From the NCBI GenBank assembly GCA_964598695.1, contig CAZRDB010000002.1, positions 30,857 to 94,856 of the forward strand: a stretch of DNA of 64,000 bases, given 5' to 3'. A model generated the notes under the pieces. It saw nothing but the letters and a program-made list of their open reading frames with translations, made no database searches and was not told the DNA's origin. The DNA comes from an uncultured Armatimonadia bacterium (GTDB lineage: Bacteria > Armatimonadota > Zipacnadia > UBA1398). The position numbers and the translations under genes were made by a program. Of this stretch, positions 1 to 32,633 are shown in pieces. Every line of letters starts with the position of its first letter. Positions within the stretch are counted from its first letter, which is position 1.

Positions 1-3000
1 TTCAACGAGGACGCCCGATTCAAGTTCTCCGACTTCGGGACCGCCTGCCGCGACTACGGCTGGCTGATCGCCGACCGGCTCCGGCTCCGCAAGGACGACA
101 CGCTACTCGACTGCATCAACACGGGCACGACGCGCTCGTGGGCGACCTACCTCCCCGGGGGGCCCTGCCTGGAAGCGGAGTGCGCCACGCTCGCCGGCTA
201 CGCGGGCGCCAGCTTCGTCTCGACCGGCGATCTCCGCCGCGCGACCGACACCGTGGGCGACACCGTCGAGCGGATGGACCTTGCCAACCTCGAGCGCCAG
301 ATGCGGGTTCTGGCCGCGGCGGTTCCCAATCTGCTGTGCGAGAAGCTCCCGGACTCCGACATCGGCATGTTCGGCGCCGATCCGGAGGATGGCTTCGCAC
401 TGGTGCACGGCGGCGTCTTCGAGTTCGGCAAGTCGATCAGCTTCTTCCCACAGGACCCGGTCCCCGGGGCGATCGCCTGCTGGGGCCGCGTCGCCAAGAC
501 GAGCTGCGGCGTCCGGCGCCAGATCATGGATCGCGTGGATGACGAGGGCCATTACGAACTGGTCGGCCTGCCGCTTCGCACGCGCAACTGGGGCGCCAAC
601 ACCGAGCTGACCGCGTTCCAGGTCGACGAGCGCACCGGCGAGGTCGTCTACGCGCCCGACCTCGGGGCGCAGGGCGCCAAGCGCCTCAACTTCAACGACT
701 TCGGCATCGAGACCAACGATACAACGAAGGACGTCGTCGTCTTCCAGGCGCGGCAGGTGTCGATCATCGACACGATCGACCCCGGCAACCTCGGGATCCT
801 CTCCGACGTGCGCGTGCTCGACCGCGCGACGAAGGCTCCGCCGTTCAAGTGGGGGATGATCCGTCCCTCGTGGATGGACTCGCGTCTGCCCGGCGACCCC
901 GAGCCGGCCGTCGTGGTCTTCGGCCAGCCGGGCGCGAAGCTGCTCCTGCTGCTCAAGCCCGGCTTCGCCGCCCCGCGCACGTTGCTGCTCAACGCCACGC
1001 CCGACGACCCTCTCGGACTCGGGATCGATGTCGATGAGGAGCCGGTCGTCGCCAACCTCGCCTACCGGGGCGCGCGGGATGTCTGGACCCTCGACGAGGC
1101 GCGGATCGAGGGCTTCAAGCGGTTCGGGATTGGCGACCGCCGGGCTCAGCGGCTGCACGAGCTGGCGGCGGGGACGCTGCAGGAGGCCGAGCAGGCCAAG
1201 GCCGACGGGGTGATCTCGCGCTACGTCGCGCTGTCACGCCGCGCCCTGGCCGTCGAGAACCGGGTCTACCCGCTCGTGGAGAAGACCGCGCGCGACGTGG
1301 TCCACGGCGTGATCTTCTACCTCGCGCTGCTGCTGCCGTTCTCGTTCCTCACCGAACGGCTGTTGCTCGCGGGGCGAACGATCGGCAAGCAGGCGGTGGG
1401 GACCATCGGCGTCTTCGCCGTCGTCTTCACGCTGCTCGCCCTCGTCCACCCCGCGTTCCGGATCACGACGACGCCGCTGATCGTCCTGTTGGCGTTCGTC
1501 CTGATGGTCCTCGCGGCGCTGGTCGCGACGGTGATCTTCCGGCACTTCGACCAGCAGATGGCCGAGTGGCGCCACCAGAGCATCGGCCAACATGACGCCG
1601 ACGTCGCGCGGCTCTCCTCGGCCTCGGCCGCGTTCGCGCTCGGCGTGGGCAACATGCGCCGGCGCGTGACCCGCACGGGCCTCACCTGCATCACGCTCGT
1701 GCTGCTCACCTTCACCGTCATCTCGTTCACCTCGGTGCGGACGGAGCAGAAGGTCCGTCGCCTCGGGATGGACTACCCGGCCGCGCGTGAGGGGATCCTG
1801 ATCCGCCAGCCCACCTACGGCGGCTTCTCGGAGTACACCTACTCCGTCCTGCGCAACGAGGTGGGCGGCGACTTCCCGATCGTGCCGCGCTCCTGGACGC
1901 TCTCCGAGGGATCGGCGCTCAAGTCGGCGATCCCGATCCGCTACCGGGGCCGGTCGTACGAGGCCGGCGCGCTGTTGGGTCTGAGCCCCGACGAGGGCCA
2001 GGTGAGCGGGCTGCCCACGACGCTCGCGGGCGGCGGCAGCCGGTGGTTCACCGACGACCCCAAGGACCTGATGACCTGCATCCTGCCGACCACGATCGCC
2101 GAGAGCCTCGGGGTCGACGCCGGCGAGATCGGCACCGCAGAGGTCGAGGTGCGCGGCGTCGCGCTCCGCGTTGTCGGCTTCTACGAGGGCTCCGCGGCCG
2201 ACGATGTGCTCGACCTCGACGGCGAGATGATGACGCCGATCGACGAGGTCGAGCAGAACAACCTGCGGCGCCAGGGCCAGCTCGGCCCACCGACGGCGGC
2301 CGCACAGGACCAGGCCACCACGACCCGCACGACGCCGCACATCAGCGCGACGCAGGTCGTGCTCGTCCCGCACGCGATGAACCTGCGGCTCGGCGGGGCC
2401 CTGCGCAGCATCGCCGCGAACCCGGGCGGCAGCGAGGAGGCGCGGAAGGCGCAGGCCGACCTCGTCGAACGCCTCGACATCGGCGTCTTCGCCGGCTCGA
2501 GCGGCAGAGTGGAGTTCTGCAGCGCCGTGGGCGGCAAGAGCCTGCAGGGGCTCGAGGGCACCCTGATCCCGATCCTCATCGCGGCGCTGATCGTGCTCAA
2601 CACGATGCTCGGCTCGGTCTACGAGCGCGTGAAGGAGATCGGGATCTACTCGAGTCTCGGCCTCTCGCCCGCGCACGTCGGCTTCCTGTTCCTCGCCGAG
2701 GCCTCGGTCTACGCCGTGCTGGGCGCGATCGTCGGCTACCTGATCGGCCAGGGCGTCGCCTGGTCGTCGATGGCCTTCGGCTGGGGCGCCGCGCTCGTCG
2801 AACTCAACTACTCGAGCCTCGCCGCCGTCGGCACCACCGTGCTCGTGATGGCCGTCGTGTACCTCTCGACGCTCTACCCCGCGCGGAAGGCCGCCGACCT
2901 CGCCGTCGCCGGCGTCGAGCGCAAGTGGCGCCTGCCCGACCCCGAAGACGACGTGCTCACCGTCGACCTGCCGTTCACGATGCAGGAGGACGAGAGCCTC

Positions 3001-3408
3001 GGCCTCCTCGCCTACCTCGCGGAGTACCTCGACGCGCACGCCGACTACTCGGTGGGCGACTTCTCGACCGACGGCGCGACGCTCCACCGGCTGGAGCCGG
3101 GCCGGGCCGACCGCGCCCACTACCGGATCCGCTTCACCGCGTGGCTCTCCCCGTACGATCTCGGCGTCTCGGAGGAGTGCGAGGTGCTCATCGTCGAGAC
3201 CGAGGAGCCCGGGGTGCTCGGCGCACGGGCCCGGATCTACCGCGTCAGCGGCGACTCCGGCGCCTGGATCCGCTGCACCCGCTCGTTCCTGAACCTCCTG
3301 CGGAGGCAGTTCCTGCTGTGGCGGACCTTCGTGCCGAGCGAGAAGGTCCGCTATCACCAGACCGGACAGGAGGTGGCGCTCCGTGGCGAATCGCGCTCGA
3401 CTGGGTGA
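1..3408 (+). CDS. Giant FtsX-domain ABC-transporter-permease-like membrane protein (5' partial; two 4-TM FtsX-type bundles separated by large periplasmic domains, C-terminal cytoplasmic domain)
   Basis: Frame 1 is open from nt 1 to the listed M at 253 (FNEDARFKFSDFGTACRDYGWLIADRL...), so the gene starts upstream of the window. The C-terminal bundle carries an FtsX-like signature ...LIPILIAALIVLNTMLGSVYERVKEIGIYSSLGLSPAHVGFLFLAEAS..., preceded by a MacB-like periplasmic stretch. A second hydrophobic bundle lies around GVIFYLALLLPFSFL...VIFRHF. Codon usage shows strong GC3 bias. Confidence 0.6.
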   Translation, partial: FNEDARFKFSDFGTACRDYGWLIADRLRLRKDDTLLDCINTGTTRSWATYLPGGPCLEAECATLAGYAGASFVSTGDLRRATDTVGDTVERMDLANLERQMRVLAAAVPNLLCEKLPDSDIGMFGADPEDGFALVHGGVFEFGKSISFFPQDPVPGAIACWGRVAKTSCGVRRQIMDRVDDEGHYELVGLPLRTRNWGANTELTAFQVDERTGEVVYAPDLGAQGAKRLNFNDFGIETNDTTKDVVVFQARQVSIIDTIDPGNLGILSDVRVLDRATKAPPFKWGMIRPSWMDSRLPGDPEPAVVVFGQPGAKLLLLLKPGFAAPRTLLLNATPDDPLGLGIDVDEEPVVANLAYRGARDVWTLDEARIEGFKRFGIGDRRAQRLHELAAGTLQEAEQAKADGVISRYVALSRRALAVENRVYPLVEKTARDVVHGVIFYLALLLPFSFLTERLLLAGRTIGKQAVGTIGVFAVVFTLLALVHPAFRITTTPLIVLLAFVLMVLAALVATVIFRHFDQQMAEWRHQSIGQHDADVARLSSASAAFALGVGNMRRRVTRTGLTCITLVLLTFTVISFTSVRTEQKVRRLGMDYPAAREGILIRQPTYGGFSEYTYSVLRNEVGGDFPIVPRSWTLSEGSALKSAIPIRYRGRSYEAGALLGLSPDEGQVSGLPTTLAGGGSRWFTDDPKDLMTCILPTTIAESLGVDAGEIGTAEVEVRGVALRVVGFYEGSAADDVLDLDGEMMTPIDEVEQNNLRRQGQLGPPTAAAQDQATTTRTTPHISATQVVLVPHAMNLRLGGALRSIAANPGGSEEARKAQADLVERLDIGVFAGSSGRVEFCSAVGGKSLQGLEGTLIPILIAALIVLNTMLGSVYERVKEIGIYSSLGLSPAHVGFLFLAEASVYAVLGAIVGYLIGQGVAWSSMAFGWGAALVELNYSSLAAVGTTVLVMAVVYLSTLYPARKAADLAVAGVERKWRLPDPEDDVLTVDLPFTMQEDESLGLLAYLAEYLDAHADYSVGDFSTDGATLHRLEPGRADRAHYRIRFTAWLSPYDLGVSEECEVLIVETEEPGVLGARARIYRVSGDSGAWIRCTRSFLNLLRRQFLLWRTFVPSEKVRYHQTGQEVALRGESRSTG

Positions 3409-5344
3409 GGATCTCGAGGAGTACAGACGGTTACTCGAGGTCCCCACGGAGTTCGAGGACGGCTTCAACCTCCGAACGGTTCTCGGAGCGCTCTTCGTCG
3501 GCTTCGTGATGATGCCGGCCTCGATCTACCTCTCGCTCGTCGCCGGCGCCAACCTCGGCGGCGCCGCGCAGTGGACCACGCTGATCCTCTTCGCCGAGGT
3601 CGCCAAACGCACGTACACCGTCCTGCGCAAGCAGGAGGTCTTCATCCTGTTCTACATGGCCGGCGGACTCGCAGCCGCGGGTGGCGGACCGTTCGGCGGC
3701 ATGATCTGGAACCAGTACCTGCGCTACTCGCCCGCCTCCGTCGGCTTCGGGATCGCCGACGCGATCCCCACCTGGGTCGTGCCGCGGGCCGATTCGATGG
3801 CCCTCGCCGAGCGCACGTTCTTCCACCCCGATTGGCTGATCCCCATCGGGATCTCGCTGCTGCTCACCGTCTTCGGCAAGATGCAGTGGCTCGGCCTCGG
3901 CTACGGGATGTTCCGGCTGACCTCGGATGTCGAGCGCCTGCCCTTCCCGATGGCGCCGGTCTCCGCGCTCGGGACCATCGCGCTCGCGGAATCGACCGGC
4001 AAGGAGCAGACCTGGCGCTGGCGCGTGCTCTCCACCGGCGCGATGCTCGGCATGGCCTACGGCTTCTTCTGGGTGGGGATCCCCGCGCTCAGCTCGACGG
4101 TCGCGACGACGCCGTTCCGGCTGATCCCGATCCCCTGGATCGACCTCACGCCGAACACGCAGAAGATCCTGCCGGCCGCCGCGACGGGCCTCTCGACCGA
4201 CCTGACGAACGTGCTGGTCGGCATGGTGGTCCCGTTCTGGTCGGTGATCGGCCAGGCGATCGCCGCCGCGATCAGCCTGTTCGTGAACCCCCTGCTCTAC
4301 CGGCGCGGGGTGTTGACCACGTGGCACGAGGGCATGGACACCGTGATGACCTCGTTCTCGGCCGACGTGGACTTCTGGATCAGCTTCCGCGTCGGGCTCG
4401 GCCTCTCGGTCTTCCTCTTCGGTGTGGCGCAGATCGCGATCGCCTACGCCCGCGCCCGCAAGGTCGGCGAGCGGCACGAGTCGTGGCGGCCGCCCAAGGG
4501 CCGGGGCGATATCCCCATCCCCGTGATGGTCGCCTTCTACCTGATCGCGACGATCGGGACGATCTGGCTCTGCCACCGGCTCGTTCCCAGCTTCAGCATC
4601 TGGTATCTCATCCTCTTCGGCTTCGTGGTCACGCCGGCCGAGTCGTTCATCAGCGCCCAGGTGCGCGGCATGGTCGGCCAGTGGGTCGGGATCCCCATGC
4701 TCCGCGAGGGCACGTTCATCCTGAGCGGCTACAAGGGCGTTGACATCTGGTTCGCCCCCCTGCCGCTCTCCGACCAGGGCGGCACGGCCGAGTACTTCCG
4801 CACCGTCGAGCTGACCGGCACCAAGCTGTGGTCGATCATCAAGGCCGACCTGCTCGTGACGCCGATCGTGATCATCTGCGGCTTCATCTTCTGGCAGTTC
4901 GCCTGGAGGCTGGCGCCGATCCCCTCGTCCCAGTACCCCGACGCCGACGTCAACTGGCCCCTGCGCTCGCTGACCCAGTGCTTCTGGATGACCGCGACGC
5001 GCGAGGGCGATAGCCCGTTCCTCCGGGCCTTCAGCTGGCCGAAGGCCGCGATCGGCCTCGGCACCGGCCTCACCTCGCTCACCGGCATGGCGGTGCTGCA
5101 CCTGCCGGTCACGCTCGTCTACGGCTTCGTCTATGGCATCGGCGCGCTGCCACACGGGATCATCCCGACCCTGGCCGGCGCCCTTCTGTCGCGCTTCTAC
5201 TTCGAGCGGCGCTTCGGCCGCGAGCGCTGGCGCCCCTACGCCGTCGTGCTGCTCGCCGGCTACGGCTGCGGGCTCGGCCTGGTCGCCCTGGCGGCCTCGG
5301 CGCTCTCGATGGTCACGACCTCGGTCTCGAACCTGCCCTACTGA
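3383..5344 (+). CDS. Uncharacterised polytopic inner-membrane protein (~12-14 TM), paralog A
   Basis: GTG start at 3383 preceded by ggacaggagg at 9-nt spacing; overlaps the upstream gene by 26 nt. Long hydrophobic segments run throughout, with an amphipathic motif RLPFPMAPVSALGTIALAES. No catalytic motif was recognised. Confidence 0.55.
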   Translation: MANRARLGEDLEEYRRLLEVPTEFEDGFNLRTVLGALFVGFVMMPASIYLSLVAGANLGGAAQWTTLILFAEVAKRTYTVLRKQEVFILFYMAGGLAAAGGGPFGGMIWNQYLRYSPASVGFGIADAIPTWVVPRADSMALAERTFFHPDWLIPIGISLLLTVFGKMQWLGLGYGMFRLTSDVERLPFPMAPVSALGTIALAESTGKEQTWRWRVLSTGAMLGMAYGFFWVGIPALSSTVATTPFRLIPIPWIDLTPNTQKILPAAATGLSTDLTNVLVGMVVPFWSVIGQAIAAAISLFVNPLLYRRGVLTTWHEGMDTVMTSFSADVDFWISFRVGLGLSVFLFGVAQIAIAYARARKVGERHESWRPPKGRGDIPIPVMVAFYLIATIGTIWLCHRLVPSFSIWYLILFGFVVTPAESFISAQVRGMVGQWVGIPMLREGTFILSGYKGVDIWFAPLPLSDQGGTAEYFRTVELTGTKLWSIIKADLLVTPIVIICGFIFWQFAWRLAPIPSSQYPDADVNWPLRSLTQCFWMTATREGDSPFLRAFSWPKAAIGLGTGLTSLTGMAVLHLPVTLVYGFVYGIGALPHGIIPTLAGALLSRFYFERRFGRERWRPYAVVLLAGYGCGLGLVALAASALSMVTTSVSNLPY

Positions 5345-5365
5345 GGCGGAAGGCTCGGTACTCGG

Positions 5366-7357
5366 ATGGTGGAGGAGCACGGACAACTGGTGGAGGCTGG
5401 CGAGGCGTCGGCGATGCCGCGCGCGCGGCTGACGCTGCGCGCGCTTGTGCTCGGCCTGGCGCTCTCCATCTTCAACTGCTACTGGGTGGCGGTGATGGAG
5501 GTCCGGTGGTACGTCCTCGACGGGACGTGCCTACCGCTGTTCGTCACGCCGATCTTCGCACTGCTGCTGCTGGCGTTCGTCAACCGCGGCTTGAGCCGGA
5601 TCCTGCCGCGGCTCGCCCTCCGACCGGCCGAGCTGCTCGTCGTCTACGTGATGATGGTCGTCTCGTGCGCGATGTGCGGCCACGACACCATCGCCAATCT
5701 GATCGGCACCGTCGGTCACCTCACCCAGCACACCACGCACGAGAACCAGTGGGGCACGCTGTTCGGCGGCCTCTTCCCCGACTGGATGTGGGTCGACGAC
5801 AAGCGCGCCCTGCTGCGCTTCTACGAGGGCGGCAAGCGGATGCCGTTCTTCGACTTCTTCGCCCCCGGCGTGGTGATGCCGTGGATGCCGAGCCTCGGCA
5901 TCTGGCTCGGCTTCTTCGCGATCGCCTGCTTCACGATGCTCGCCCTAGCCGTCGTGCTCCGCCGGTCGTGGATCGAGCATGAGCGCCTGAGCTTCCCGAT
6001 CGTCCAGCTCCCGCTCGCGGTCACCCGGCCGGCGCTCGAGAACGTCCTCGGCAACCGCGCGTTCTGGATCGGCTTCGCCATCGCGGCGTTCATCAGCCTC
6101 ATCAACGGCCTCTCGGTGCTCAACCCGCAGTGGCCCAAGTTCACGCGCGTGAAGCTCACGTACCTCAACACCTTCTTCACGACCCCGCCCTTCAACGCCG
6201 TCGACGCCCGGCTCGGGGCCTACCCGTTCGGGGTCGGGCTCGCCTACTTCCTGCCCACCGATCTGAGCTTCTCGTGCTGGTTCTTCTTCGTCGCTCGCAT
6301 GTTCCAGCAGGTCTGGCGCGCCAGCAGCGGGTGGATCAAGGCCGACTACTTCGGCGAGCAGTCGATGGGCGCGTGGCTCGTGATGGTCGCTCTCCTGCTG
6401 TGGGCGGGGCGCAAGCAGCTCCGCGGCCTCTCGCGGCGTGCCCTGGAGCAGGAGGCGATCCGAGAACCCCGCGAAGCGCTCCGACGCCGGCTCGCGATGG
6501 GCGTCGTCATCGCCGGCACCGCGCTGATGATCGGCTACGCCCACTTCGCCGGGCTCCGGTTGTCGTTCTCGATCCTGTTCTTCGTGCTCTACTTCGGCCT
6601 CGCCATCGCGATCACGCGCGTCCGGGCCGAGATGGGAGCGCCGCACGAGATCTACTTCGTCCAGCCGCGCGACCTGATCGTCACCCTCTTCGGCACGAGC
6701 TTCTTCACCAACGGGATGGGGCCGTTCCGCGGCGGCCACCAGAAGGACCTCGCGATCATGTGCTCCTTCTTCTGGCTCACCCGCGGCAACCGCAACCACC
6801 CGATGCCCAATTACCTCGAGGCGTTCAAGATCGCCCAGTCGGTCAACCTCCCCGTGGGCTCGATGACCTTCGTGCTGGTCCTCGGCACGATCGTCTCGAT
6901 CCTCGCCGCCACCTCGGCCAACCTGCACATCCCGTACCTCTACGGCGGCGTCTCGAAGATGAAGGGCTTCAAGACCTGGGTGGGCGCCGAGACCTTCCAG
7001 CGCCTCCAGGACTGGCTCGTCAACCCCCGCGCGCCGGACTCCGGCGGCCTCAAGGCCCTGCTGTTCGGCGGCGTCGTCGCGAGCCTGCTCTCGATGCTGC
7101 GCACCCGCTTCGTCGGCTTCCCGTTCCACCCCGCCGGCTACGCGCTCGCCACGAGCTTCGCGCTCGACTACTTCTGGTTCAGCTTCCTGGTCGGGTGGCT
7201 CGCCAAGGCCAGCATCCTCCGCTGGGGCGGGCAGAAGACCCACCGTGGCGCCGCGCCGTTCTTCCTCGGCCTGGTCGCCGGCGACTACTTCCTGGGTGCG
7301 TTCTGGTCCCTGTACGGGATGTTCAAGGACGTCCAGGTGTACCAGATGTACATCTAG
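5366..7357 (+). CDS. Uncharacterised polytopic inner-membrane protein, paralog B of 3383..5344
   Basis: Same length class (663 vs 653 aa) and the same architecture as paralog A, with a related motif RLSFPIVQLPLAVTRPALE. ATG at 5366 lies 22 nt after the previous stop; an alternative in-frame ATG at 5414 (MPRARLTL...) is possible. Confidence 0.55.
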   Translation: MVEEHGQLVEAGEASAMPRARLTLRALVLGLALSIFNCYWVAVMEVRWYVLDGTCLPLFVTPIFALLLLAFVNRGLSRILPRLALRPAELLVVYVMMVVSCAMCGHDTIANLIGTVGHLTQHTTHENQWGTLFGGLFPDWMWVDDKRALLRFYEGGKRMPFFDFFAPGVVMPWMPSLGIWLGFFAIACFTMLALAVVLRRSWIEHERLSFPIVQLPLAVTRPALENVLGNRAFWIGFAIAAFISLINGLSVLNPQWPKFTRVKLTYLNTFFTTPPFNAVDARLGAYPFGVGLAYFLPTDLSFSCWFFFVARMFQQVWRASSGWIKADYFGEQSMGAWLVMVALLLWAGRKQLRGLSRRALEQEAIREPREALRRRLAMGVVIAGTALMIGYAHFAGLRLSFSILFFVLYFGLAIAITRVRAEMGAPHEIYFVQPRDLIVTLFGTSFFTNGMGPFRGGHQKDLAIMCSFFWLTRGNRNHPMPNYLEAFKIAQSVNLPVGSMTFVLVLGTIVSILAATSANLHIPYLYGGVSKMKGFKTWVGAETFQRLQDWLVNPRAPDSGGLKALLFGGVVASLLSMLRTRFVGFPFHPAGYALATSFALDYFWFSFLVGWLAKASILRWGGQKTHRGAAPFFLGLVAGDYFLGAFWSLYGMFKDVQVYQMYI

Positions 7358-7392
7358 CGCCCGTCCGACCGGCGCCCCAAGGAGGTCACCCC

Positions 7393-10197
7393 ATGCGCTC
7401 CCTCGCGCCGTCGCTCGCGGCCGTCGCGCTGCTGCTCTCCGCCGCCTCGGCCGCTGCCGAGGCCGACGATGCGACCGTCGCCTTGATGGCCGTGGGCGGC
7501 TTCGGCGACGTCGGTCGTCTGGAGCCCGACCGAGCCGTGCTGTCGGCGAACAACACGCTCGGCGCCTCACTCCGGATCGTCTGGGAGGACCGCCCGGCCC
7601 CGCCCGCCTGGTGGAGCATCCGCATCGGCCTCCCGCGCGGCGCGAGCGACTACGACGCGCTCGAGTTCGATCTTCGCGTCGAGGAGACCGACGACCAGGC
7701 CCAGCTCTCCGTCTTCCTCGCCGAGTCGGACGACGATCGCTGGGTCTGCTACGGCGCGCGCCTCGCCGAGCTGCCCCGGGGCGAGTGGCTGCATGTGGTC
7801 GTCCCGCGCGATGCAATGGGGCCCTGGCTGATCGGCAACGGCGTGGCCGATTGGGACGCCCTCCGTGTCCTCGCCATCGAGCCGGGCGGGGGCAAGGCGA
7901 CCTTCCACCTCGACGGCCTCGCGCTCAGCCGAGCCGACGACGGCGCCCGACGGGCCATCCTCGACGGCGACGACGACGGCTACGAGCCGCTCGGACCGGC
8001 CGTCGCCCCTCAGCCCGAGCCCTCCGCGGGCCGCTGTTACTTCCCGTTCGACGGCGGCCGGCTCAGCGTCGAGGCCTACCTCCGCACGCCGGGGCGGCTC
8101 GGCGAGATCGTCGGCGCCGTCGGCACCCCGATCGCCGGCTACACCGCGAGCCTGCCCCGGGAGCGCGCCTCGTTGGCGGCAGAGGGGATCCCCTCGATCT
8201 ACTACTCCTCGTTCTCCTCGGGCTACGCGAAGTACCTGACGCGCCGTCAGGCCTGGGACGTCTGCGCCGACGGCCGCTCCCTCAACTTCGTGCACCCCAT
8301 GCAGACCACGTGGGACGGCCAGCACACGATCTCCTACGCCCATCCGGCCGTGACCGAGGCCCTGAGCCACAAGGCCGACGCCCTGCTCGCGGCCGGGCTC
8401 GGGACCTGGATGGTCGTCGACTACACCTTCCCGTGGTTCGATGGCTGGTGGGGCTACTCCGACGCGATGCGGGAGGCCTACCGAGCCGACCTCGCCGGCG
8501 CCGACGAGGGCCTCTTCCTGCGCGGGCGGGCGGAGCCGCTCCGCTTCGCCGAGTACTTCCGCTCCTACAACGGCTTCGCGCCCACCCCCGCCGACCTCGG
8601 CCTCTCGGCCTGGAGCGAGTTCGAGCCGCCGCGCTCGGACGAGCCCGACAGCCCGCGCCAGCGCGCCCGGGTCGCGACCTGGTTCACCCTCCGCTCCTAC
8701 GAGTGGCTCAAGCTGCCCGACCGCGTCGGGCGCCGGATGCGGGACGGCGGCGGCAATCCGCTGTGGATCGTCCCCAACCCCGAGGACTCCTACGGCTCGA
8801 GCGACTACGCCTACCTCGTGCGCAGCCAGGGGGTCGGCAACCTCTTCCCCGAGTGGTTCGGCTGCATCGGCTGGGCCGCCGAGGCTGGCTACGCCAGCCT
8901 GCCGCCGCTCCGCGAGACGGCCGATGAGGGTGGCTGCCGCCTGTCGATCATCCAGGAGACCGGCGCCGGCGGCCATGCCGCGCCCTACCTCGACTGGCGG
9001 GCGGCCTACTGCGGCGTCTACGCGCTCGCGGCTGCGGGCCGGCTCGACGACTTCGACAACGACTTCCTCGACCAGCAGCCCTTCGCGTCGATGAGCGATC
9101 CGGCCCAGGGCGCCGACGAGTTCGCCCGCTTCCGCGACGGCGTGGCGAAGGCCCTGGCCTTCCGTCAGGCTCGGGCGGAGACCGCCCGACGGCCCGCGAC
9201 CGACGTCCTGTGCGTCGCCGGCCGCCCGCCGGCCTACGGCGCCGGGAGCATCTACTTCGGGCTCGACCAGCCTCACTCGCTCGCGCCCGGCCTGTCGCGC
9301 GCCCACGTGCGGTTCGACTTGCGCGACAGCCTCGATCTCGAGCGGGTGCTCGACCGGTACCGGGTGGTCTTCTACAGCCCGCGCGCGCCGCGCAGGGGCG
9401 ACCTCGCCCGGCTGCGGGCGTGGCTCGAGGGCGGCGAGGGGAGGGTGCTCGTGACCCACAGCTTCGTCCCGACGCGCGATGCCGCGGAGTGGTGGCACTT
9501 CGACGGCGGGCCGGGGCTCGGTGGCGGGGACGGCCGCCTCCTCGGCCTCGGGTCGATCGGGCCGGCAGCCGGTGTCAGCGCGACGGTCACCGAGGCCACT
9601 GATCCCTGGGCCGCCGCGCTCCCGGTGGGCGCCACGCTTCGGGCGCGCGCTCCGCTGACGACCTGTGCCGAGGGCCGCGCGTTGATCGCGGGCGAGGCCG
9701 GCGCCCTGCTCACCGAGGCGCGAGTGGGCCGGGGCCGCGTGCTGTACCTCCACTGGTCCCCCGGCAGCCTCGATGGAGACGTGGAGTCGGATCTGTGGAC
9801 CGCCGCCGCCACGGAGCTGGGCCTGCCCGTGACCGGCTCGACGGATGCCGAATGCCCGGTGCAGGTGTTCGACGTGCCCGGCGGCCGCTCCGTGCTGGCG
9901 TGGGACGCCCCCGCGATGCGCGCCTGGAGCTTCGAGTACCGCCCCGGGATCGCGCCACTCGCCTTCGCCGCGCCCGACTCCGACCACACTGTAGCCCTGC
10001 CGGAGGCCGGCGCGGGGGCCGTCGTCTACGACTTCTGGCGCGATGAGATGGCCACCGGACCCGCGCTGCGGCTCGAGGGCGACCTCGCCGGCCTGTGGTA
10101 CGTGGGGCCGGACACGCCGGAGTTCCGCGCGACGCTCGAGGCCGCCCGTGCGCTACGGGCGAAGCTGCGCGATCTGGGGTTCGACGCGGCGCCGTGA
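7393..10197 (+). CDS. Secreted 934-aa protein with an N-terminal signal peptide (MRSLAPSLAAVALLLSAASAAAEA); possible carbohydrate-active or binding protein, family unknown
   Basis: ATG at 7393 is residue 422 of the 6130..10197 ORF, with ggagg 7 nt upstream. A classic Sec signal peptide is present. The upstream 421 codons of the track ORF overlap gene 5366..7357 in another frame and are Arg/Pro-rich GC artefact. Confidence 0.55.
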   Translation: MRSLAPSLAAVALLLSAASAAAEADDATVALMAVGGFGDVGRLEPDRAVLSANNTLGASLRIVWEDRPAPPAWWSIRIGLPRGASDYDALEFDLRVEETDDQAQLSVFLAESDDDRWVCYGARLAELPRGEWLHVVVPRDAMGPWLIGNGVADWDALRVLAIEPGGGKATFHLDGLALSRADDGARRAILDGDDDGYEPLGPAVAPQPEPSAGRCYFPFDGGRLSVEAYLRTPGRLGEIVGAVGTPIAGYTASLPRERASLAAEGIPSIYYSSFSSGYAKYLTRRQAWDVCADGRSLNFVHPMQTTWDGQHTISYAHPAVTEALSHKADALLAAGLGTWMVVDYTFPWFDGWWGYSDAMREAYRADLAGADEGLFLRGRAEPLRFAEYFRSYNGFAPTPADLGLSAWSEFEPPRSDEPDSPRQRARVATWFTLRSYEWLKLPDRVGRRMRDGGGNPLWIVPNPEDSYGSSDYAYLVRSQGVGNLFPEWFGCIGWAAEAGYASLPPLRETADEGGCRLSIIQETGAGGHAAPYLDWRAAYCGVYALAAAGRLDDFDNDFLDQQPFASMSDPAQGADEFARFRDGVAKALAFRQARAETARRPATDVLCVAGRPPAYGAGSIYFGLDQPHSLAPGLSRAHVRFDLRDSLDLERVLDRYRVVFYSPRAPRRGDLARLRAWLEGGEGRVLVTHSFVPTRDAAEWWHFDGGPGLGGGDGRLLGLGSIGPAAGVSATVTEATDPWAAALPVGATLRARAPLTTCAEGRALIAGEAGALLTEARVGRGRVLYLHWSPGSLDGDVESDLWTAAATELGLPVTGSTDAECPVQVFDVPGGRSVLAWDAPAMRAWSFEYRPGIAPLAFAAPDSDHTVALPEAGAGAVVYDFWRDEMATGPALRLEGDLAGLWYVGPDTPEFRATLEAARALRAKLRDLGFDAAP

Positions 10198-10204: not shown

Positions 10205-11458
10205 CTACCCCTTCGGGTTCGTCACCCGCCCGAGGAACAGCACGAGTCCGGTCTTCGTGTCGCGGATGAGATACAGGAACGGGTGGTCGGCGAGGAAGCT
10301 CGCCTTGCACTTGCTGGCGGGCACCGGCCCGGCGGTCCCCGCGGACGCCTCGATCCCTCGCTCGTTCACCTTCAGCCATGTCGCGTGGTGGACATCGTCG
10401 ACCCAGAGCCCGCCACTCCCCGTCATGCCGCTCAGGTCGGCCGCGTCGAACGCGAGCGGCATCCCCATCGCCGACAGCACAGGCTTCAGCCTCGCGCTCG
10501 CTTCGAGCTCCCAGCGCGGGAGAGCCACCTCGACGAAGCAGGTCTCGGTCGGCGCGCCGGCAAGGGCGACGGCGTCCTCCCATGCGCCGCTCGCGAGGGG
10601 GATCGCGCCCTCTTGCGGCAGCAGGATCGCCATCTCCACGGTGGTCTGCCGGCAGGGAAGGTGCAGGACCTGGCACGGTACGCCCCCCACGGTCCCCTCC
10701 GCGTACTCCATGTGATCGTTGCGGTGCATCATCTGGGCCGTCACCGTGCGTCGCGGTGTGTGGAACGGACCGGGGCGCGTCAGCGCGAGGTTGAACTCGG
10801 TCTCCCACGGGGCGAGCAGGTACAGCGCGTTCGCGAGCACCAGTTGGGTGTTCCTGTCGGTCGCTCCCCGAGGCAGCAGCTCGGGGATGTGCCCGCCCGT
10901 GCGCTCGGAGACCCAGCGGTTGACCTCGGCCTGCCCGGGCTTCGGGTATGTGGTCTGGTGGATCGACCCGCCGAAGTCGCGCTCGATCGCCGCGCGGTAG
11001 TCTGCGAGCGGCGTGCAACCTTCGCCGAGCCACAGGCTGTTGGCGGGGCGCAGTGTGGCGCGGGCCGTGTTCGCCCGCAGGTCGAGGTCGAGCCGGTTGA
11101 GCGCCGGCCCGAGGCGGTCGTCGGGGAGGCCGAAGCCGCAGACGGTCCGGATCTGCTCGCGCGTCTCGCCTCGCGCCCCAAGGCAGACCATCCCGAGCGT
11201 CACCCCGAGGCTGTAGGGGGAGATGCAGAGGTTGTCCTCGTTGCCCTTCGCGAGTTCGGCCGCGAGCCGCAGGCCGAAGAGCGCGTTGCCCTCCGCGAGC
11301 TTGGCGGTCTCCTCCGGCGAGGCCTCGGGGTTCTGGTCGCGAGCCGCGGCGAGCGGCTCCGCGGGCACAGCGCGCTCGGGGCGCTCGCTCCGGCAGCCCG
11401 TGAGACCGAGGGCGACGACCAACCCCACTCCCAGAGCCACCGCGCGCCATCCCGCCAT
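10205..11458 (-). CDS. Serpin (serine protease inhibitor) family lipoprotein
   Basis: C-terminal serpin signature FLADHPFLYLIRDTKTGLVLFLGRVTNP. The hinge/RCL reads NERGIEASAGTAGPVPASKCK, with the GIEASAGTA hinge intact. The N-terminus MAGWRAVALGVGLVVALGLTGC carries a lipobox LTGC. Confidence 0.85.
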   Translation of the reverse strand: MAGWRAVALGVGLVVALGLTGCRSERPERAVPAEPLAAARDQNPEASPEETAKLAEGNALFGLRLAAELAKGNEDNLCISPYSLGVTLGMVCLGARGETREQIRTVCGFGLPDDRLGPALNRLDLDLRANTARATLRPANSLWLGEGCTPLADYRAAIERDFGGSIHQTTYPKPGQAEVNRWVSERTGGHIPELLPRGATDRNTQLVLANALYLLAPWETEFNLALTRPGPFHTPRRTVTAQMMHRNDHMEYAEGTVGGVPCQVLHLPCRQTTVEMAILLPQEGAIPLASGAWEDAVALAGAPTETCFVEVALPRWELEASARLKPVLSAMGMPLAFDAADLSGMTGSGGLWVDDVHHATWLKVNERGIEASAGTAGPVPASKCKASFLADHPFLYLIRDTKTGLVLFLGRVTNPKG

Positions 11459-11623: not shown

Positions 11624-12388
11624 CTACCGATCGGGGTAGGGGATCGCCCCGTCGACGTGCGGCGGAGTGCCGTCCCACTCGATGCACCAGGGCGGCACGG
11701 CGTCGACCGCGCTGCTGGCGGCCTTGCCGAACGTCGCCACCTGCTTGAGCGGCAGGGGCTTGGCGTGGCCGTCGACGAAGGTGACATTGGTCATGCCGTT
11801 GTGGCGATTGCAGCCGGCCTTGCCCGAGTCCCAGTCCAGCCCGAGCGTGTTCATCAGGACCGCCCAGGTGTCGTCGCCCCAGGTCGCGCCGCCCACGTAG
11901 CCGTCGAGGATCGCGAACGTCTCCGCCGGGTAGCGGATCTCCGACACCAGGCACCGCGCGTCCCCGTTGTTGAGCCCGTAGCACAGGCCGTCGTAGTTGA
12001 CGATGTAGTTGCCGTAGTACACCCCGTCCGGGGGGAGGCCCGCCACGAGGTCGGAGTAGGCGCTGCCGACCTTCACCGGGCTCGTGGGGCACGCGAAGAT
12101 CTGGTTGTTCCTCACGTACGGGTACAGGAGCTGGCACCAGTTGGTGCCCCAGTTGAACGCCCAGGTGTCGTCGCCCGACCAGTAGGCCGGCGGGAACTTC
12201 TCGTCATAGTCCTGGGTGTACTGGTTGAGCGCCGTCCCGAGCTGGCGCAGGTTGCTCAGGCAGCTCGTCTGGCGCCCCTTCTCGCGAACCTTCGCGAACA
12301 CGGGGAACAGGATGGCCGCGAGGATCGCGATGATCGCGATCACGACCAGGAGTTCGATCAGGGTGAAGCCTCTGTGCCTTCGAAGCAT
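11624..12388 (-). CDS. DUF1559 / H-X9-DG protein with prepilin-type N-terminal cleavage-methylation domain (type II secretion pseudopilin-like)
   Basis: N-terminus [45 protein letters not shown] is the canonical PulG-like segment. C-terminus has the H-X9-DG motif [23 protein letters not shown] at 12388 with gggagg upstream. Confidence 0.85.
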
Positions 12389-12417
12389 GGTGTTCCTCCC
12401 GCCGTCGTGGGCATGCG

Positions 12418-12642
12418 CTAGGGAGCGCCGCTGCCGGCCTCGTTCGTCGCGCCGCCCTCGTAGGTCGCCGCTCCCTCGCGCGCGGCGGGAGGAGCGGAGC
12501 GCTCCGCCTGGGTCGCGGCGCGGGTGACCTGCTCCGTCTCGCCCGGGGGCTCCAGGGCGGGAGGCTTGCGACAGCCGGCGAGCAGGGCGGCGGCGAGGAG
12601 GGCGAGCAGGGCCGTGCGGCGGATGATCTGTTGTCTCAGCAT
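12418..12642 (-). CDS. Small lipoprotein (74 aa), function unknown
   Basis: [24 protein letters not shown] contains lipobox LAGC. AAGGAG lies upstream of the ATG at 12642. The gene sits between the two DUF1559 genes; the longer 12418..13593 track ORF overlaps the upstream gene and is rejected. Confidence 0.45.
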
Positions 12643-12671
12643 GGGATCTCCTTGGTCCGGTCGAGGCGGGC

Positions 12672-13463
12672 CTACATACCCGCGACGTACTTGGCGTACT
12701 TGGCCTTCCAGCCGGTGTCGTAGCTGTTGACGACGTACCAGTTCCACGGGGGCTTGTAGGCCGAGGCCAAGGCCGTCGCCTGGTCCATGCCGCAGAAGAA
12801 GCTGAAGCCCTGCGCCTTGGCGTGGCCGTCCCAGTAGCCCACGTTCGCCAGGCCGTTGTGGCGCAGGGCGCCCTCGCCGCGGGCGTCCCAGTCGAGGTCG
12901 AGGTCCTCGAGCGGTGGGTACTCGTTGCTGCCCTCGTTGAAGTAGGCGTCGCCCGCGTCGCAGAGGAAGACCACCTCGGCCGGGCTGTCGGTGAGCGTCA
13001 TCATGCAGTTCGCGACCGGCCGGTTGGCCATCGCGTCCCAGTTGATGCCGTAGTTGCCGTCGGTGCCCATGGTGTAGGTGCCGGTGGCCTCGTTGTACGA
13101 GCCGTAGGTGATCCCCGGATCGGGGCTCGACGGGCAGTCGAAGAGGTCGGCGCTCTTGACGTACGGGCCGACGTAGGCCGGGAACTCCACCCACGGGCGG
13201 AGCGACCGGCAGGGCGTCCCGAACGGGTTCATCATGGGGTTGTTGCCGGAGGTGGCCGCATTGGGGAAGGTCTCGTCGTAGTCCTGCGCGTACGCCAGTT
13301 CCGCGGTCATGATCTGGCGGACGTTCGACAAGCAACTGGTCTGGCGCGCCTTCTCCCGTGCCCTGCCGAAGACGGGGAACAGGACCGCGGCCAGGATGCA
13401 GATGATCGCGATGACGACGAGTAGCTCGATGAGCGTGAAGCCGGAGCGCGTGCGTGCGGGCAT
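12672..13463 (-). CDS. DUF1559 / H-X9-DG protein with prepilin-type N-terminal domain (second copy)
   Basis: [51 protein letters not shown] is the PulG-like N-terminus. H-X9-DG motif [20 protein letters not shown]. The start is residue 416 of the 678-aa track ORF, top coordinate 13463 (cat confirmed in sequence). Confidence 0.85.
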
Positions 13464-13718
13464 GGTGCTGGAACTCCCTTCGAGCGTGCGGGGGGAGACG
13501 GCCGCGACCGACGGAAGCAGCCGAGGAGACCCGGGCGATCGGGGGGCCCTCCCGATCTCGCCACGCCCCCCTGTATACGGCCCGTGCGGCCAAGAGCGCG
13601 CTAAGCGCGCCTTAAGCGCCCATGAAGGAGCGCGGCGCGTCGAGGTTGCCTCCGGCCGGGCGCGCGAGTACCCTGTCCTCGATTCGCTCGTACATGCCCA
13701 GGGAAGAGGTGCCCGGCT

Positions 13719-14474
13719 ATGGCTCACAGGATCGCTCGCTCCGTGGGGATCGTCCTTCTCTTCGCCGCGCTGCTCGCGCTCTGCGCGTGGGCCGTCGCCG
13801 CCCAGACGCAGGAGAAGCCCGACCGTCCCGACCCGATCGGCCCCTCGCCCACGCTGGGCTTGGCGCCGCCACCCGGCGCCTGGGCGCCGACCGACATGAC
13901 CGCATGGCACCGTCGCGACGGGGGGCCGGGGATCTGGAGGGTCGAGGATGGCGTGATGACGGCCGGCGGCGGCGACATTCTCAGCAACGAGCACTTCGAG
14001 GACGCCTACATCCACGTCGAGTTCCGCGAGCCCGACATGCCCGACGCCTCCGGCCAGGGCAAGGGCAACAGCGGCGTGGGGGTCCAGGGCCGGTACGAGG
14101 TGCAGGTGCTCGACAGCTACGGCCTCGCGCGTCCCGGTAAGGGCGACTGCGGCGCCGTGTACGACCAGTTCGCGGCCCTGCTGAACGCCTCGCGCCCCCC
14201 CGAGGAGTGGCAGACCTACGACATCGTGTTCCGCTCGGCGCGCCGCGACGCGCAGGGGCAGCTCGCGGAGAAGGCGCGGTTGACGGTTCTCCACAACGGG
14301 TATGTCATCCAGAACAACGTGGAGGTCCTGGGGCCGACCAACATCGCGCTCGATGCCGACGAGGGCACCCCTGGGCCGCTCCTGCTCCAGGATCACGGCT
14401 GCCCGGTGCAGTACCGCAACGTCTGGATCCTGCACCTGCCGGCCACCGCCAACGACCAGTACGCGGGCCAGTGA
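13719..14474 (+). CDS. DUF1080 (3-keto-disaccharide hydrolase-like / LamG-fold) secreted protein
   Basis: Signal peptide [29 protein letters not shown]. Conserved DUF1080 blocks [20 protein letters not shown] and [18 protein letters not shown]. Confidence 0.8.
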
Positions 14475-14635
14475 GGCGCCGGCGGCCTCTGAGCACCGAC
14501 CCACGGGGCAGGAGACGCCGACCGAGGCGGAGAAGCCCCTTGGCGTTCGGATGCGAGGGCTCGATCGGGCATACTCCCCATTGGGCGCGTGGTGTCGGGG
14601 TGGGAGTAGCCCGTTTGGCAGGAGGCGTCCTGGCA

Positions 14636-15004
14636 ATGCCGATCTTCTTTGCCATGGACAACGCGCAGTTGCGACTGGAGGAGGGGACGCTCCCGTCGGT
14701 CGGTGCATTGTCGCTCGATACCGAGGGTCTGACCTTCACGACCGGCGGGTTCGTCCACGGCGATATCCGCGTGCCGTACGAGAACATCGCCTCGATCGGG
14801 CGGCTGTACCGTTCGAAGGACACGATCCAGGTCACCACCGTGACCGGCGAGCGGTACCTGATCAGCGTCTACCAGGAGGGCACAGCCGACGGCGTCCGCG
14901 CGATCCTCCGCCTGCTGCAGGCCCGCGCCATCCACCAACGCCAAACCAAGCCGCCGTCCGACCCGGAGGATCCCGAGGCCGGCCCCGACGCGTCTTCCTC
15001 GTAG
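14636..15004 (+). CDS. Hypothetical protein (122 aa), possibly PH-like fold, acidic C-terminus
   Basis: ATG at 14636 is residue 144 of the 14207..15004 ORF, with ggaggcg about 10 nt upstream. GC3-biased codons. Sits immediately upstream of nuoA. Confidence 0.4.
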
Positions 15005-15070
15005 GGCCGCGCGCACGCGGAGGAGTTGCCCGCCCACGCGGCGAAGCTCCCCTGCCGGGAGAGAGCTTCG

Positions 15071-15469
15071 ATGCAGTTCCACCCGTACGCGCAGATCCTG
15101 ATCCTCGCCGTCGGCGGCATTGTCTTCATCGGTGGCGCGCTCGTCTTCGGTTGGCTGGTTCGGCCCCGCAAGCCGGCGGAGCCGAAGGAGACGACCTACG
15201 AGTGCGGCGAGTTGCCGATCGGGAGCGCCTGGTTCCAGTTCCCAGCCCAGTTCTACCTGATCGCCCTCCTCTTCGTCGTCTTCGAGGTCGAGGCGGTCTA
15301 CCTGTTGCCCTGGGCGCTCAAGCTGAGCAGCTTCCTCCACAACCCGGAGGGCGAGCTGGTTGGCTCGGCTTGGTTCGCAATCGTCGAGATGGGCATCTTC
15401 CTCTTCGTCCTGCTGCTCGGATGGGTCTACGCACTGCGGAAGGGAGCGCTCGAGTGGATCACCGAGTAG
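15071..15469 (+). CDS. nuoA: NADH-quinone oxidoreductase subunit A
   Basis: [30 protein letters not shown]...[41 protein letters not shown] is typical NuoA/ND3. RBS gggagagag upstream. Confidence 0.9.
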
Positions 15470-16056
15470 CGCTCCCGGGCTGCGAGGGCGATGGCCCCCC
15501 CGGGTCGGGCCGGATCGCCACTCCCGACGGCCTCGCCCCCTCGCCCGAGCTGGACGGACTCCGCTCGTCGGTCCTGGGCTCGCTCCCGGGCGCGGGTCGC
15601 GCGATCGACCTCGTCGACCGCTGGGTGTTCGCGCAGGCGCGGCTGCGCTCGCTGTGGCCCCTGTCGTTCGGCCTGGCCTGCTGCGCCATTGAGATGATGG
15701 CCGCGTTCGCCTCCCGCTTCGATATGGACCGCTTCGGCGTCTTCCCCCGCGCCACGCCGCGGCAGGCCGACGTGATGATCGTCGCGGGGACCGTGACCTA
15801 CAAGATGGCCGAGCGGCTTCGCCGGCTGTACGACCAGATGCCCGAGCCCAAGTACGTCATCGCCATGGGGAGCTGCGCCAACTGCGGCGGGCCGTTCCTG
15901 GACGGCTACCACGTCGTGCGCGGCGTCGATCTCATCGTGCCGGTCGACATCTACGTTCCCGGTTGCCCCCCGCGGCCCGAGGCCCTGATCGACGGCTTCT
16001 ACCGCCTGCGCGAGAAGATCGCGCGCGCCGAGGGCGCCGTCTCGCCCGTGAGGTAG
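15421..16056 (+). CDS. nuoB: NADH-quinone oxidoreductase subunit B (N2 cluster subunit)
   Basis: [18 protein letters not shown]...[10 protein letters not shown]...VPGCPPRPE are the NuoB Cys motifs. The only in-frame ATG is at 15421, giving a 49-nt overlap with nuoA and about 76 residues before LWP. An internal GTG/CTG start cannot be excluded. Confidence 0.75.
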
Positions 16057-25693: not shown

Positions 25694-26659
25694 CTATACC
25701 TCGTGGCACGCCACCCAATGGTCGGGCCGCGCCTCGCGCCAGGCGGGTTCCTCGCGCCGGCAGCGGTCGGTCGCGAGCGTGCAGCGCGGCGCGAAGCGGC
25801 AGCCGGGCGGCGGGTTGATCGGGCTCGGGACGTCGCCCGGCAGGGGCAGCGGCTCGAGCGGGATCGTCGGATCCGGCTCCGGCGAGGCCGAGAGCAGCGC
25901 GCGCGTGTAGGGGTGGAGCGGCTCGTCGCAGACGCGGTCCTTCGGGGCCTCCTCGCACAGCTTGCCGAGGTACATCACGGCAATGCGATCACTGATGTGG
26001 CGGACGACGGCGAGGTCGTGCGCGACGAAGAGGTACGAGAGGCCGAACTCCCCCTGCAGGTCGCGCAGCAGCTCGATGATCTGCGCCTGGATCGAGACGT
26101 CGAGCGCGCTGACCGGCTCGTCGCAGATGATCAGCTCGGGCTGCACGGCGAGCGCTCGGGCGATCCCCACCCGTTGGCGCTGGCCGCCGCTGAACTCGTG
26201 CGGGTAGCGCGCGAGATCGTCGAGCGTCAGGCCCACCCGCTCGAGGTAACACCCGGCGGCCGCCATCGGTGAGAGACCGGACGCGAGCCGGTGGATGGCG
26301 ATGCCCTCGGCGACGATCGTGCCCGCCGTCATGCGCGGGTTGAGCGAGGAGTAGGGGTCCTGGAAGATGATCTGGACCCTGCGCCGGAAGTCGAGCAGCG
26401 CGCGGCCGCGCAGGCGCCGCGTGCCGTGGCCCCGGAAGAGCACCTCGCCCCGTGTCGGCTCGAGCAGCTTGACCCCCATACGGCCCAGCGTCGATTTGCC
26501 GCAGCCGCTCTCCCCCACCAGGCCGACGGTCTGGCCGCGCGGCACGACGAGCGAGACGTCATCGACCGCATGGACGTGGCCGACCGTGCGCTGGAAGACG
26601 CCGCCGGTGATCGGGAACCACTTGCGCACGCCCCGGAACTCGAGCAGGGGGGCGCTCAT
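25694..26659 (-). CDS. Oligopeptide/dipeptide ABC transporter ATP-binding protein (OppF/DppF-like)
   Basis: Walker A GESGCGKST and Opp-type C-terminal extension PGCRFAPRC...C. The start is MSAPLLEF (residue 51 of the track ORF), making a 4-nt ATGA overlap with the upstream ATPase. Confidence 0.85.
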   Translation of the reverse strand: MSAPLLEFRGVRKWFPITGGVFQRTVGHVHAVDDVSLVVPRGQTVGLVGESGCGKSTLGRMGVKLLEPTRGEVLFRGHGTRRLRGRALLDFRRRVQIIFQDPYSSLNPRMTAGTIVAEGIAIHRLASGLSPMAAAGCYLERVGLTLDDLARYPHEFSGGQRQRVGIARALAVQPELIICDEPVSALDVSIQAQIIELLRDLQGEFGLSYLFVAHDLAVVRHISDRIAVMYLGKLCEEAPKDRVCDEPLHPYTRALLSASPEPDPTIPLEPLPLPGDVPSPINPPPGCRFAPRCTLATDRCRREEPAWREARPDHWVACHEV

Positions 26660-27648: not shown

Positions 27649-27655
27649 GGCGGGG

Positions 27656-28555: not shown

Positions 28556-28563
28556 GTCACCCC

Positions 28564-32474: not shown

Positions 32475-32633
32475 GCTGACCTCTCCTCGCCGCCGGCGGC
32501 CGCGCGCCCCTCCCGCGATCCCGCCGTCCGCTATTCGCTCCCCCCGGCCCGATGCACCTCCAGGCGCGCCCGCGCAGGTCCGCGCGCCCCGCGTGCGGAA
32601 GGACGCGATGCCCCCAGGGGCGGAAGGAGCTGG

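Follow-up and report, generated by a model that had tools for sequence, protein, structure and literature searches.

What is the function of an operon that joins a giant FtsX-family protein to two large polytopic membrane proteins and a secreted protein? This question is raised by the first four genes, g1 to g4, of a 64,000-nucleotide stretch of DNA from an uncultured Armatimonadia bacterium (contig CAZRDB010000002.1, positions 30,857 to 94,856 of the forward strand), which we call the window and to which all positions refer unless another locus is named. A preliminary description had tentatively seen in these genes a machine for envelope remodelling, surface-protein handling or extracytoplasmic export, but the OPT/Yellow-Stripe transporter fold predicted for g2 and g3 points to solute transport. 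Our tentative answer, to which we give somewhat less than an even chance, is that g1 is a receptor-like FtsX mechanotransmitter coupled to OPT-fold permeases and importing a peptide-like substrate. We take g1 and g2 as the core unit, g3 as a frequent third partner and g4 as an add-on unit. The features of the four genes are as follows.

1..3408, + strand: g1, FtsX-family protein, 5'-truncated (it runs off the window start)
1..1290, + strand: extracytoplasmic middle domain of g1 (residues 1-430), conserved in 26 orthologues and placed outside the membrane by predicted topology
1297..1536, + strand: first bundle of three transmembrane helices of g1 (residues 433-451, 461-479 and 494-512), from a hydropathy scan
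1666..2895, + strand: FtsX unit of g1, with a first transmembrane helix (residues 556-574), a periplasmic domain of ~280 aa and a three-helix FtsX domain (residues 858-965)
2896..3405, + strand: cytoplasmic C-terminal tail of g1, ~170 aa, with invariant W, P, G, R, Q and L in the alignment
3383..5344, + strand: g2, 653 aa, putative OPT/Yellow-Stripe-fold permease
5366..7357, + strand: g3, 663 aa, DUF6785 (nt 5432-6946) and DUF6784 (nt 7055-7348)
7393..10197, + strand: g4, 934 aa, predicted to be secreted, signal peptide at about nt 7393-7461

The four genes had been described as tightly coupled on one strand, and the open reading frame (ORF) coordinates, the overlap and the short gaps bear this out. 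The 26-nt overlap between g1 and g2 stands as first given, but the g2-g3 and g3-g4 spacers are 21 and 35 nt, each one less than the 22 and 36 nt reported earlier. The overlap makes translational coupling of g1 and g2 likely, judging from the gene layout, and Shine-Dalgarno sequences of the GGAGG type lie 5' of g2 and of g4. A sequence scan found no promoter-like site inside the four-gene block and a single terminator-like match (inside g2), compared with 2.7 expected by chance; the block is read here as having no internal terminator. The end of the operon is marked by a convergent serpin gene (10205..11458, - strand). Database proteins that are 100% identical to g2 (P0121) and g4 (P0260) have equal lengths and the same starts, so our start calls for both genes agree with independent annotation. 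The N-terminal hydrophobic signal sequence attributed earlier to the 934-aa g4 protein is also present.

The evidence for transport comes from the predicted structures of g2 and g3. AlphaFold2 models built from 25-sequence alignments reached a predicted local distance difference test score of 82 and a predicted template-modelling (TM) score of 0.84 for g2, and 83 and 0.87, respectively, for g3. When these models were searched with Foldseek, the only solved structure matched by each was the barley Fe(III)-phytosiderophore transporter YS1 (7wst/7wsr), and the match extended over the whole length (g2: E 2.5e-11, probability 1.0, TM score 0.60-0.67; g3: E 7e-8, probability 1.0; TM score 0.60-0.68 over the two models). 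The models thus assign the OPT/Yellow-Stripe transporter fold to both proteins. YS1 is an OPT-family protein, and the paper on its structure (PMC9691689) describes an importer that forms homodimers, is coupled to protons and moves in an elevator-like manner.

At the level of sequence, the relationship is more distant. The Pfam OPT family (PF03169) was not matched by g2 or g3 at E <= 0.1; it was matched by two of 25 g2 relatives (best E 5e-9) and by none of 25 g3 relatives, and several g2 relatives carry the NCBI name "peptide transporter". Compared with the known OPT/YSL proteins (TC 2.A.67; HvYS1, 7wsr/7wst), g2 and g3 are set apart by an identity to YS1 of 12-15%, and neither family profile matched any PDB sequence, that of YS1 included. 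We therefore class g2 and g3 as OPT-superfamily members by modelled fold and not as members of the Pfam OPT family by sequence. The initial impression that they have no recognisable transporter motif gives way to this fold and to the Pfam OPT matches of some g2 relatives. Those proteins of the OPT fold that have been characterised import oligopeptides, glutathione and metal chelates by a proton-coupled, elevator-type mechanism, and we know of no OPT member coupled to an FtsX or ATP-binding cassette (ABC) module.

The two permeases differ in their Pfam content. g3 is a full-length member of the proteins that combine DUF6785 (residues 23-527, E 9e-139, 463.6 bits) with DUF6784 (residues 564-661, E 1e-31, 109.5 bits), and both domains are present in all 25 sampled g3 relatives; g2 has no Pfam match. 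The suggestion that the membrane proteins may correspond to these two families was correct for g3, but both families lie in g3 and neither in g2, rather than one in each. Pfam assigns no function to DUF6785 or DUF6784, and our literature search for either name found no paper. A BLASTP comparison of g2 with g3 was not significant. In hhalign, a first comparison gave a probability of 0.5%, and profiles of 88 and 109 sequences gave 21% with 536 colinear columns and an E-value of 1e-3. Because this sequence-level signal is weak, the paralogy of g2 and g3 rests on their common fold; the earlier description of two distantly related paralogues is upheld at that level and not by sequence.

The window holds the 3' 1,135 codons of g1, whose complete product has ~1,500 aa, so that ~378 N-terminal residues, with the signal peptide and most of the M28/PA-like domain, lie upstream of the window. 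Aligned with the orthologue of 1,507 aa in L001 (2888-7411), the visible part corresponds to residues 379-1507, with 69% identity along 1,129 aa. The orthologues, at ~1,500 aa, comprise a signal peptide, an M28/PA ectodomain, three transmembrane helices, one demonstrable FtsX unit and a tail of ~170 aa, and hydropathy gives the window copy a topology of 3 + 1 + 3 helices. FtsX (PF02687) is the sole Pfam family in g1 (residues 858-965, 56.6 bits, E 3.4e-15; cut-off 25.5 bits). The MacB_PCD family (PF12704) gave a weak match, below its cut-off, in the L001 orthologue (E 0.0017) and no match in the window copy. We also aligned 26 sequences of the g1 family and compared the full-length alignment and its N-terminal part separately with PDB sequences. 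In its C-terminal part, the full-length profile matched MacB (5lil, E 3.4e-17) as well as LolF, YtrF and LolC. Profile positions 340-1150 had no Pfam or PDB sequence match, and the tail had none among PDB sequences. A second FtsX unit, as claimed in the preliminary description, was considered and rejected at the level of homology: there is one Pfam match only, and the first three-helix bundle compares with the FtsX domain at an hhalign probability of 0.1%. The double topology is plausible, but homology is not demonstrated; a 4 + 4 arrangement is possible if the signal sequence of the orthologues is an uncleaved anchor. The cytoplasmic tail is also shorter than the ~230 aa first estimated, at about 170-180 aa.

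The E, R, E, I and G of an ER..EIG motif, in the loop after the first helix of the FtsX domain, are invariant in the 26 orthologues, including those of the source clade, which has no ATPase gene nearby. In MacB, this loop is the docking site of the ATPase. Because it is invariant even in the ATPase-less clade, the analogy suggests that an ATPase may still dock on g1 there.

The N-terminal head of g1 lies upstream of the window and is described here from its orthologues. The N-terminal profile aligns over ~300 residues with PA-M28 aminopeptidases (2ek8, E 9e-26; Bacillus subtilis YwaD, 6hc6, E 5e-20) and also matches the transferrin receptor, nicalin and nicastrin. In a HMMER alignment of 23 sequences, Y stands in place of the first Zn-ligand His in 17 and H is kept in one; the bridging Asp is replaced by Q, N, S or G in 20 of 23 and kept as D in two; and the catalytic Glu-Glu pair has become G-H in most, with the H in 22 of 23. 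This comparison covers the His, the bridging Asp and the Glu-Glu pair, as the two C-terminal ligands could not be aligned. With these substitutions throughout the family, the head is a predicted pseudo-peptidase by canonical criteria. As conservation extends to the substituted residues (Y, E, H), the head may have an alternative site. The transferrin receptor, nicastrin and nicalin have likewise lost Zn and catalytic residues from an M28/PA fold, and there the dead fold serves as a ligand or substrate receptor. The g1 head shares this state with them and differs in being fused to an FtsX permease.

We evaluated the conservation of gene linkage in two sets of loci. The g2-anchored set consisted of the best 80 metagenome loci, mostly 45-52% identical to g2; adjacency was counted in the 51 loci with at least 5 kb of upstream sequence, and 55 loci contained g1. 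A full-length g1 homologue (1,468-2,153 aa) was immediately 5' of g2 in 41 of the 51, mostly at a spacing below 130 nt or with overlap, and the other 10, which have long upstream flanks, had g2 without g1. A g3-like gene accompanied g1 in 21 of 55 loci, the gene order being 3-1-2, 1-3-2 or 1-2-3. Because the g1-g2 adjacency persists while the surrounding genes and their order reshuffle, the comparison argues for selection on this pairing, not inertia. The proposal of an FtsX protein wired to large polytopic membrane proteins is strengthened accordingly, the adjacency being kept well beyond the source genome. By modelled fold, the two membrane proteins belong to a characterised transporter superfamily (OPT/YSL), which speaks in part against the preliminary description; their neighbourhood is conserved outside this genome.

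The g3-anchored set, from a scan of species-representative genomes, contained at least 555 loci. Here, g1 and g2 occur beside g3 only in the closest (Armatimonadia) clade, and in Poribacteria and most other lineages g3 sits in unrelated, lineage-specific synteny. DUF6785/DUF6784 proteins are thus mostly stand-alone and have been recruited beside g1-g2 in some lineages. Neighbours of DUF6785 in Poribacteria (SDR, GT2, MetH-like and nitrate-assimilation genes) were considered as functional partners and judged to be lineage synteny; the variable neighbours GDPD, rhomboid, NUDIX, aminotransferase, DAHP synthase, DUF4190 and DUF2752 were rejected as not conserved.

The closest g3 relatives are in metagenome-assembled genomes (MAGs) of Armatimonadia, at 76-79% identity; the closest g2 relatives, at 72%, are in MAGs labelled mostly Armatimonadota and in one case Acidobacteriota. 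The Planctomycetes-Verrucomicrobia-Chlamydiae (PVC) lineage proposed earlier does not fit these nearest relatives, and NCBI taxonomy places Armatimonadota in the kingdom Bacillati, not in PVC.

Individual loci showed further arrangements. In one clade (L138:9031-9888, L139, L140), g1 and g2 are separated by the genes of two small membrane proteins, one of DUF2752 and one in which DUF4190 is combined with a GYF_2 domain, and a small gene 3' of g2 in L138 (11996-12211) looks TatA-like by eye. In MAGs of Candidatus Fervidibacter, two to three DUF6785-type paralogues lie side by side (L065:3297-11959; L078:1123-6893; L088:7354-11989), which suggests substrate diversification. In L001, a relative at 78% identity, a 158-aa ORF without a family match separates g2 from g3 (9472-9948), and a PmbA/TldD-type metallopeptidase, another peptide-related neighbour, takes the place of g4 downstream of g3 (12136-13425).

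g4 belongs to a rare secreted orphan family. It had no Pfam or PDB relative, also when searched with a 28-sequence profile, and an exhaustive profile search of 1.84 billion proteins placed its family in 240 representative clusters. Its larger remote relatives carry additional domains of the SLH, Big_2, CHB_HEX_C, CarboxypepD_reg and SGBP_B_XBD types. The secreted protein had been counted as part of the machine, but its hidden Markov model found no homologue in any of 168 g2- or g3-anchored loci. Four g4-anchored contexts were available: one (L169/L170) has a DUF6785-DUF4838-g4 operon, and in another (L173) DUF6785 is 3 kb away. The remaining two, L174 among them, place g4 among GH42, GxGYxYP, pectate-lyase-fold, GH99/GH71 and CBM genes. 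These contexts mark g4 as an addition specific to its lineage, linked with g3 and glycan degradation and lying outside the g1-g2 core; it is probably glycan-active. Glycoside hydrolase genes (GH99, GH31, GHL6-like) are also found downstream of the trio in the Armatimonadota loci L005 to L008. In L005 (14106-21968), the stretch after g1-g2-g3 contains GH99, DUF6259/GHL6-like and GH31 genes as well as genes for an Ig_Rha78A_N protein, an aminotransferase and an amidohydrolase, a glycan-utilisation context parallel to g4 here.

Four accessory orthogroups recur on the same strand as the core, either up- or downstream of g1-g2.

ABC ATPase: ~250-300 aa, closest to MJ0796, LolD, the MacB nucleotide-binding domain, YbbA, YtrE, BceA and FtsE; 20 of 55 g1 loci
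Small FtsX protein: ~205-270 aa, PF02687, with a short ectoloop; 20 of 55 g1 loci
c5: ~300 aa with two Cys pairs, no Pfam or PDB relative; 14 of 55 g1 loci
PqqD-like protein: ~130 aa, with a peptide-binding domain of the PqqD type (PF05402 at 51.5 bits); 11 of 55 g1 loci

Of the 12 loci in which 3.5 kb or more flank the core on each side, eight carry the ATPase and the small FtsX protein. The gene order is c5, PqqD, small FtsX, ATPase, g3, g1, g2 in L131 and g1, g2, c5, PqqD, small FtsX, ATPase in L168; the module lies at L131:342-2953, L168:11931-14794, L109:12002-14107 and L025:14552-16792 (- strand). None of the four orthogroups was found in the 64-kb window or beside g1-g2 in the closest relatives (L001-L011, L089-L091). 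Contrary to the preliminary description, the window does encode ABC ATPases, of the Opp/Dpp type at 25.7-27.6 kb and of the ABC-2 type at ~38-40 kb. These score ~100 bits, compared with at least 480 bits for orthologues of the dedicated ATPase, and none is of the MacB/LolD class. A literature search for PqqD together with FtsX found no paper.

These parts combine into a possible mechanism. The g1 head would capture a peptide-like substrate outside the cytoplasmic membrane, and the FtsX unit would pass on conformational work so that the substrate is presented or released to the OPT-fold permease or permeases, with which g1 would form a physical complex. In many relatives this work would be driven by the LolD/MacB-class ATPase with its small FtsX partner; in the source genome, the genes for these two would lie elsewhere or be absent, and the step may or may not depend on ATP. 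The OPT-fold permease would then carry the substrate into the cell. As YS1 is a homodimer, g2 may likewise pair with itself, or else with g3 as a heterodimer. g4, which would be tied functionally to g3, probably releases fragments for uptake via g3.

The components are of known kinds, namely a type VII ABC/FtsX protein, an OPT fold and an M28/PA pseudo-enzyme, and their combination was not found in the literature searched; a search for FtsX, M28 and OPT together returned nothing relevant, and the early view that the system is undescribed agrees with this. g1 shares with MacB, LolCDE, FtsEX and BceAB the C-terminal FtsX domain, an order TM1-periplasmic domain-TM2-4 as predicted from hydropathy (the periplasmic domain itself being only weakly MacB-like) and the ER..EIG motif, and in 20 g1 loci the dedicated ATPase is most similar to MJ0796, LolD and MacB. 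Unlike those type VII ABC systems, g1 has ~1,500 aa, with an extra N-terminal ectodomain of ~800 aa (pseudo-M28/PA and an unknown domain), an extra three-helix bundle and a cytoplasmic tail of ~170 aa. It is also obligately paired with an OPT-fold permease, has no adaptor, TolC, EnvC or lipoprotein partners, and in the source clade its ATPase is not encoded nearby. Unlike in FtsEX, no EnvC/PcsB/RipC-type hydrolase or activator recurs in the 80 g2-anchored loci. We regard it as rather unlikely that these proteins form a new hybrid class, in which a type VII ABC mechanotransmitter (g1, joined by the small FtsX protein and the LolD-class ATPase in loci that have them) with a receptor-like dead-aminopeptidase head is physically coupled to elevator-type OPT-fold permeases as a receptor-dependent, ABC-assisted importer. 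Substrate capture or gating on the outside would be powered by ATP and supply a secondary transporter, and the imported peptide would pass to the PqqD-like protein in the cytoplasm. To our knowledge, neither the combination of FtsX, OPT fold and M28/PA pseudo-enzyme nor an ABC-assisted, receptor-dependent importer has a described precedent.

Several observations weigh against import by an FtsX-coupled system. MacB, LolCDE, FtsEX and BceAB expel, extract or activate on the membrane's outer face, and we know of no characterised type VII ABC system that drives or assists import. The preliminary suggestion that an ATPase may lie upstream is not supported, as the 2.9-5.5 kb upstream of g1 in the closest relatives contain unrelated genes and no ATPase partner, and no MacB/LolD-class partner is encoded in the 64-kb window. 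Both c5 and the PqqD-like protein, presumably cytoplasmic, would fit export or maturation at least as well. Homology of g2 and g3 at the sequence level is weak at best. Finally, the g3 family was without g1 or g2 within 10 kb in ~70 of 83 distinct loci examined, and because most of its loci are of this kind, g3 can clearly work alone.

The main rival to import is peptide export or maturation, in which the PqqD-like protein binds a peptide, the ABC/FtsX module exports it with or without the OPT-fold proteins, and the g1 head holds or processes it. The sharing of 11-14 loci by the PqqD-family protein and c5 with the ATPase and the small FtsX protein speaks for it, as do the resemblance of the dedicated ATPase to the lantibiotic/bacitracin ATPases PsdA and BceA and the established export of peptides and toxins by MacB-class systems. 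However, a search of 12 extended loci for a small precursor ORF found none that is conserved; the one small gene with any conservation, TatA-like by eye, is shared by just four loci that are closely related. Maturation enzymes of the radical-SAM, cyclase or protease type are not conserved in the clusters either, and the PqqD-like protein (absent from the window) is thus unlike those of clusters for ribosomally synthesised and post-translationally modified peptides in having neither a conserved small ORF nor a modifying enzyme beside it. The loss of M28 catalytic residues from the g1 head also stands against this rival, the characterised OPT-fold transporters are importers, and neither the window nor its clade has any of the genes for the PqqD-like protein, c5 and the ATPase. 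On balance, we consider export unlikely.

A lower chance still is given to the absence of any dedicated complex, in which case the four genes would have independent functions (g1 as an orphan FtsX protein, g2 and g3 as separate secondary transporters, g4 as a secreted enzyme) and be kept together by operon inheritance only. g3 stands alone in most genomes, g2 lacks g1 in the 10 loci noted above, g4 is variable, and the source clade has no ATPase nearby, all as independent genes would predict. This explanation has difficulty with the g1-g2 adjacency, which persists at 45-52% identity amid changing surroundings, with the stop/start overlap that suggests translational coupling, and with the conserved cytoplasmic tail of g1. 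The weakest alternative, FtsEX-like envelope remodelling or surface-protein handling in which an ATP-driven g1 ectodomain activates or positions an extracytoplasmic enzyme (here g4), would suit an FtsX domain with large ectodomains, a co-transcribed 934-aa secreted protein and the substrate gatekeeping of pseudo-M28 heads in the gamma-secretase and nicalin complexes, but is very unlikely given that g4 is absent from all 168 related loci and tracks g3, that the obligate partner of g1 (g2) has a predicted transporter fold, and that no peptidoglycan-hydrolase, coiled-coil activator or lipoprotein-sorting partner is conserved.

Import by an FtsX-coupled OPT-fold permease would matter in several ways. 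The role ascribed to proteins of the MacB/FtsX type is mechanical work outside the membrane and not transport across it; the conserved, coupled pairing with a secondary-transporter fold suggests that this mechanism may also assist a permease. The models assign DUF6785/DUF6784, with its hundreds of loci, to the OPT/Yellow-Stripe fold, and the dead-aminopeptidase head of g1 would be a bacterial parallel to the eukaryotic M28/PA receptors. The carriers are mostly uncultured and poorly studied Armatimonadota and their neighbours, in which a dedicated uptake machine would bear on polymer scavenging.

Other genes of the window are described here for completeness. The serpin gene that ends 7 nt from g4 (10205-11458, - strand) encodes a full-length bacterial serpin (PF00079, E 5.6e-80), a protease inhibitor adjoining a putative peptide-handling operon, and was not seen in the related loci. 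An Opp/Dpp-type oligopeptide ABC importer (25694-31298, - strand), with two oligo_HPY ATPases, an OppC-like permease and a family-5 binding protein, is a second and conventional peptide-uptake system in the window. The cluster at 35245-41860 (+ strand), with an HlyD-like membrane-fusion protein, a CitMHS-family transporter and an ABC-2-type ATPase and permease, is probably an efflux system unrelated to the FtsX operon. Two ORFs have long unexplained N-terminal regions: a 930-aa protein (31371-34163, - strand) whose C-terminal third is a GFO/IDH/MocA oxidoreductase, and a 584-aa ORF (14302-16056, + strand) that resembles the 20-kDa subunit of NADH-quinone oxidoreductase in its last ~110 residues. 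DUF1559 pilin-like genes with a prepilin N-methylation motif lie at 11624-12388 and 12672-14708 (both - strand); in the 678-aa ORF of this family the motif is at residue 419, indicating a mis-called start or a fusion. Similar DUF1559 genes are found 3' of g2 in 11 related loci, and the family is massively expanded in these phyla.

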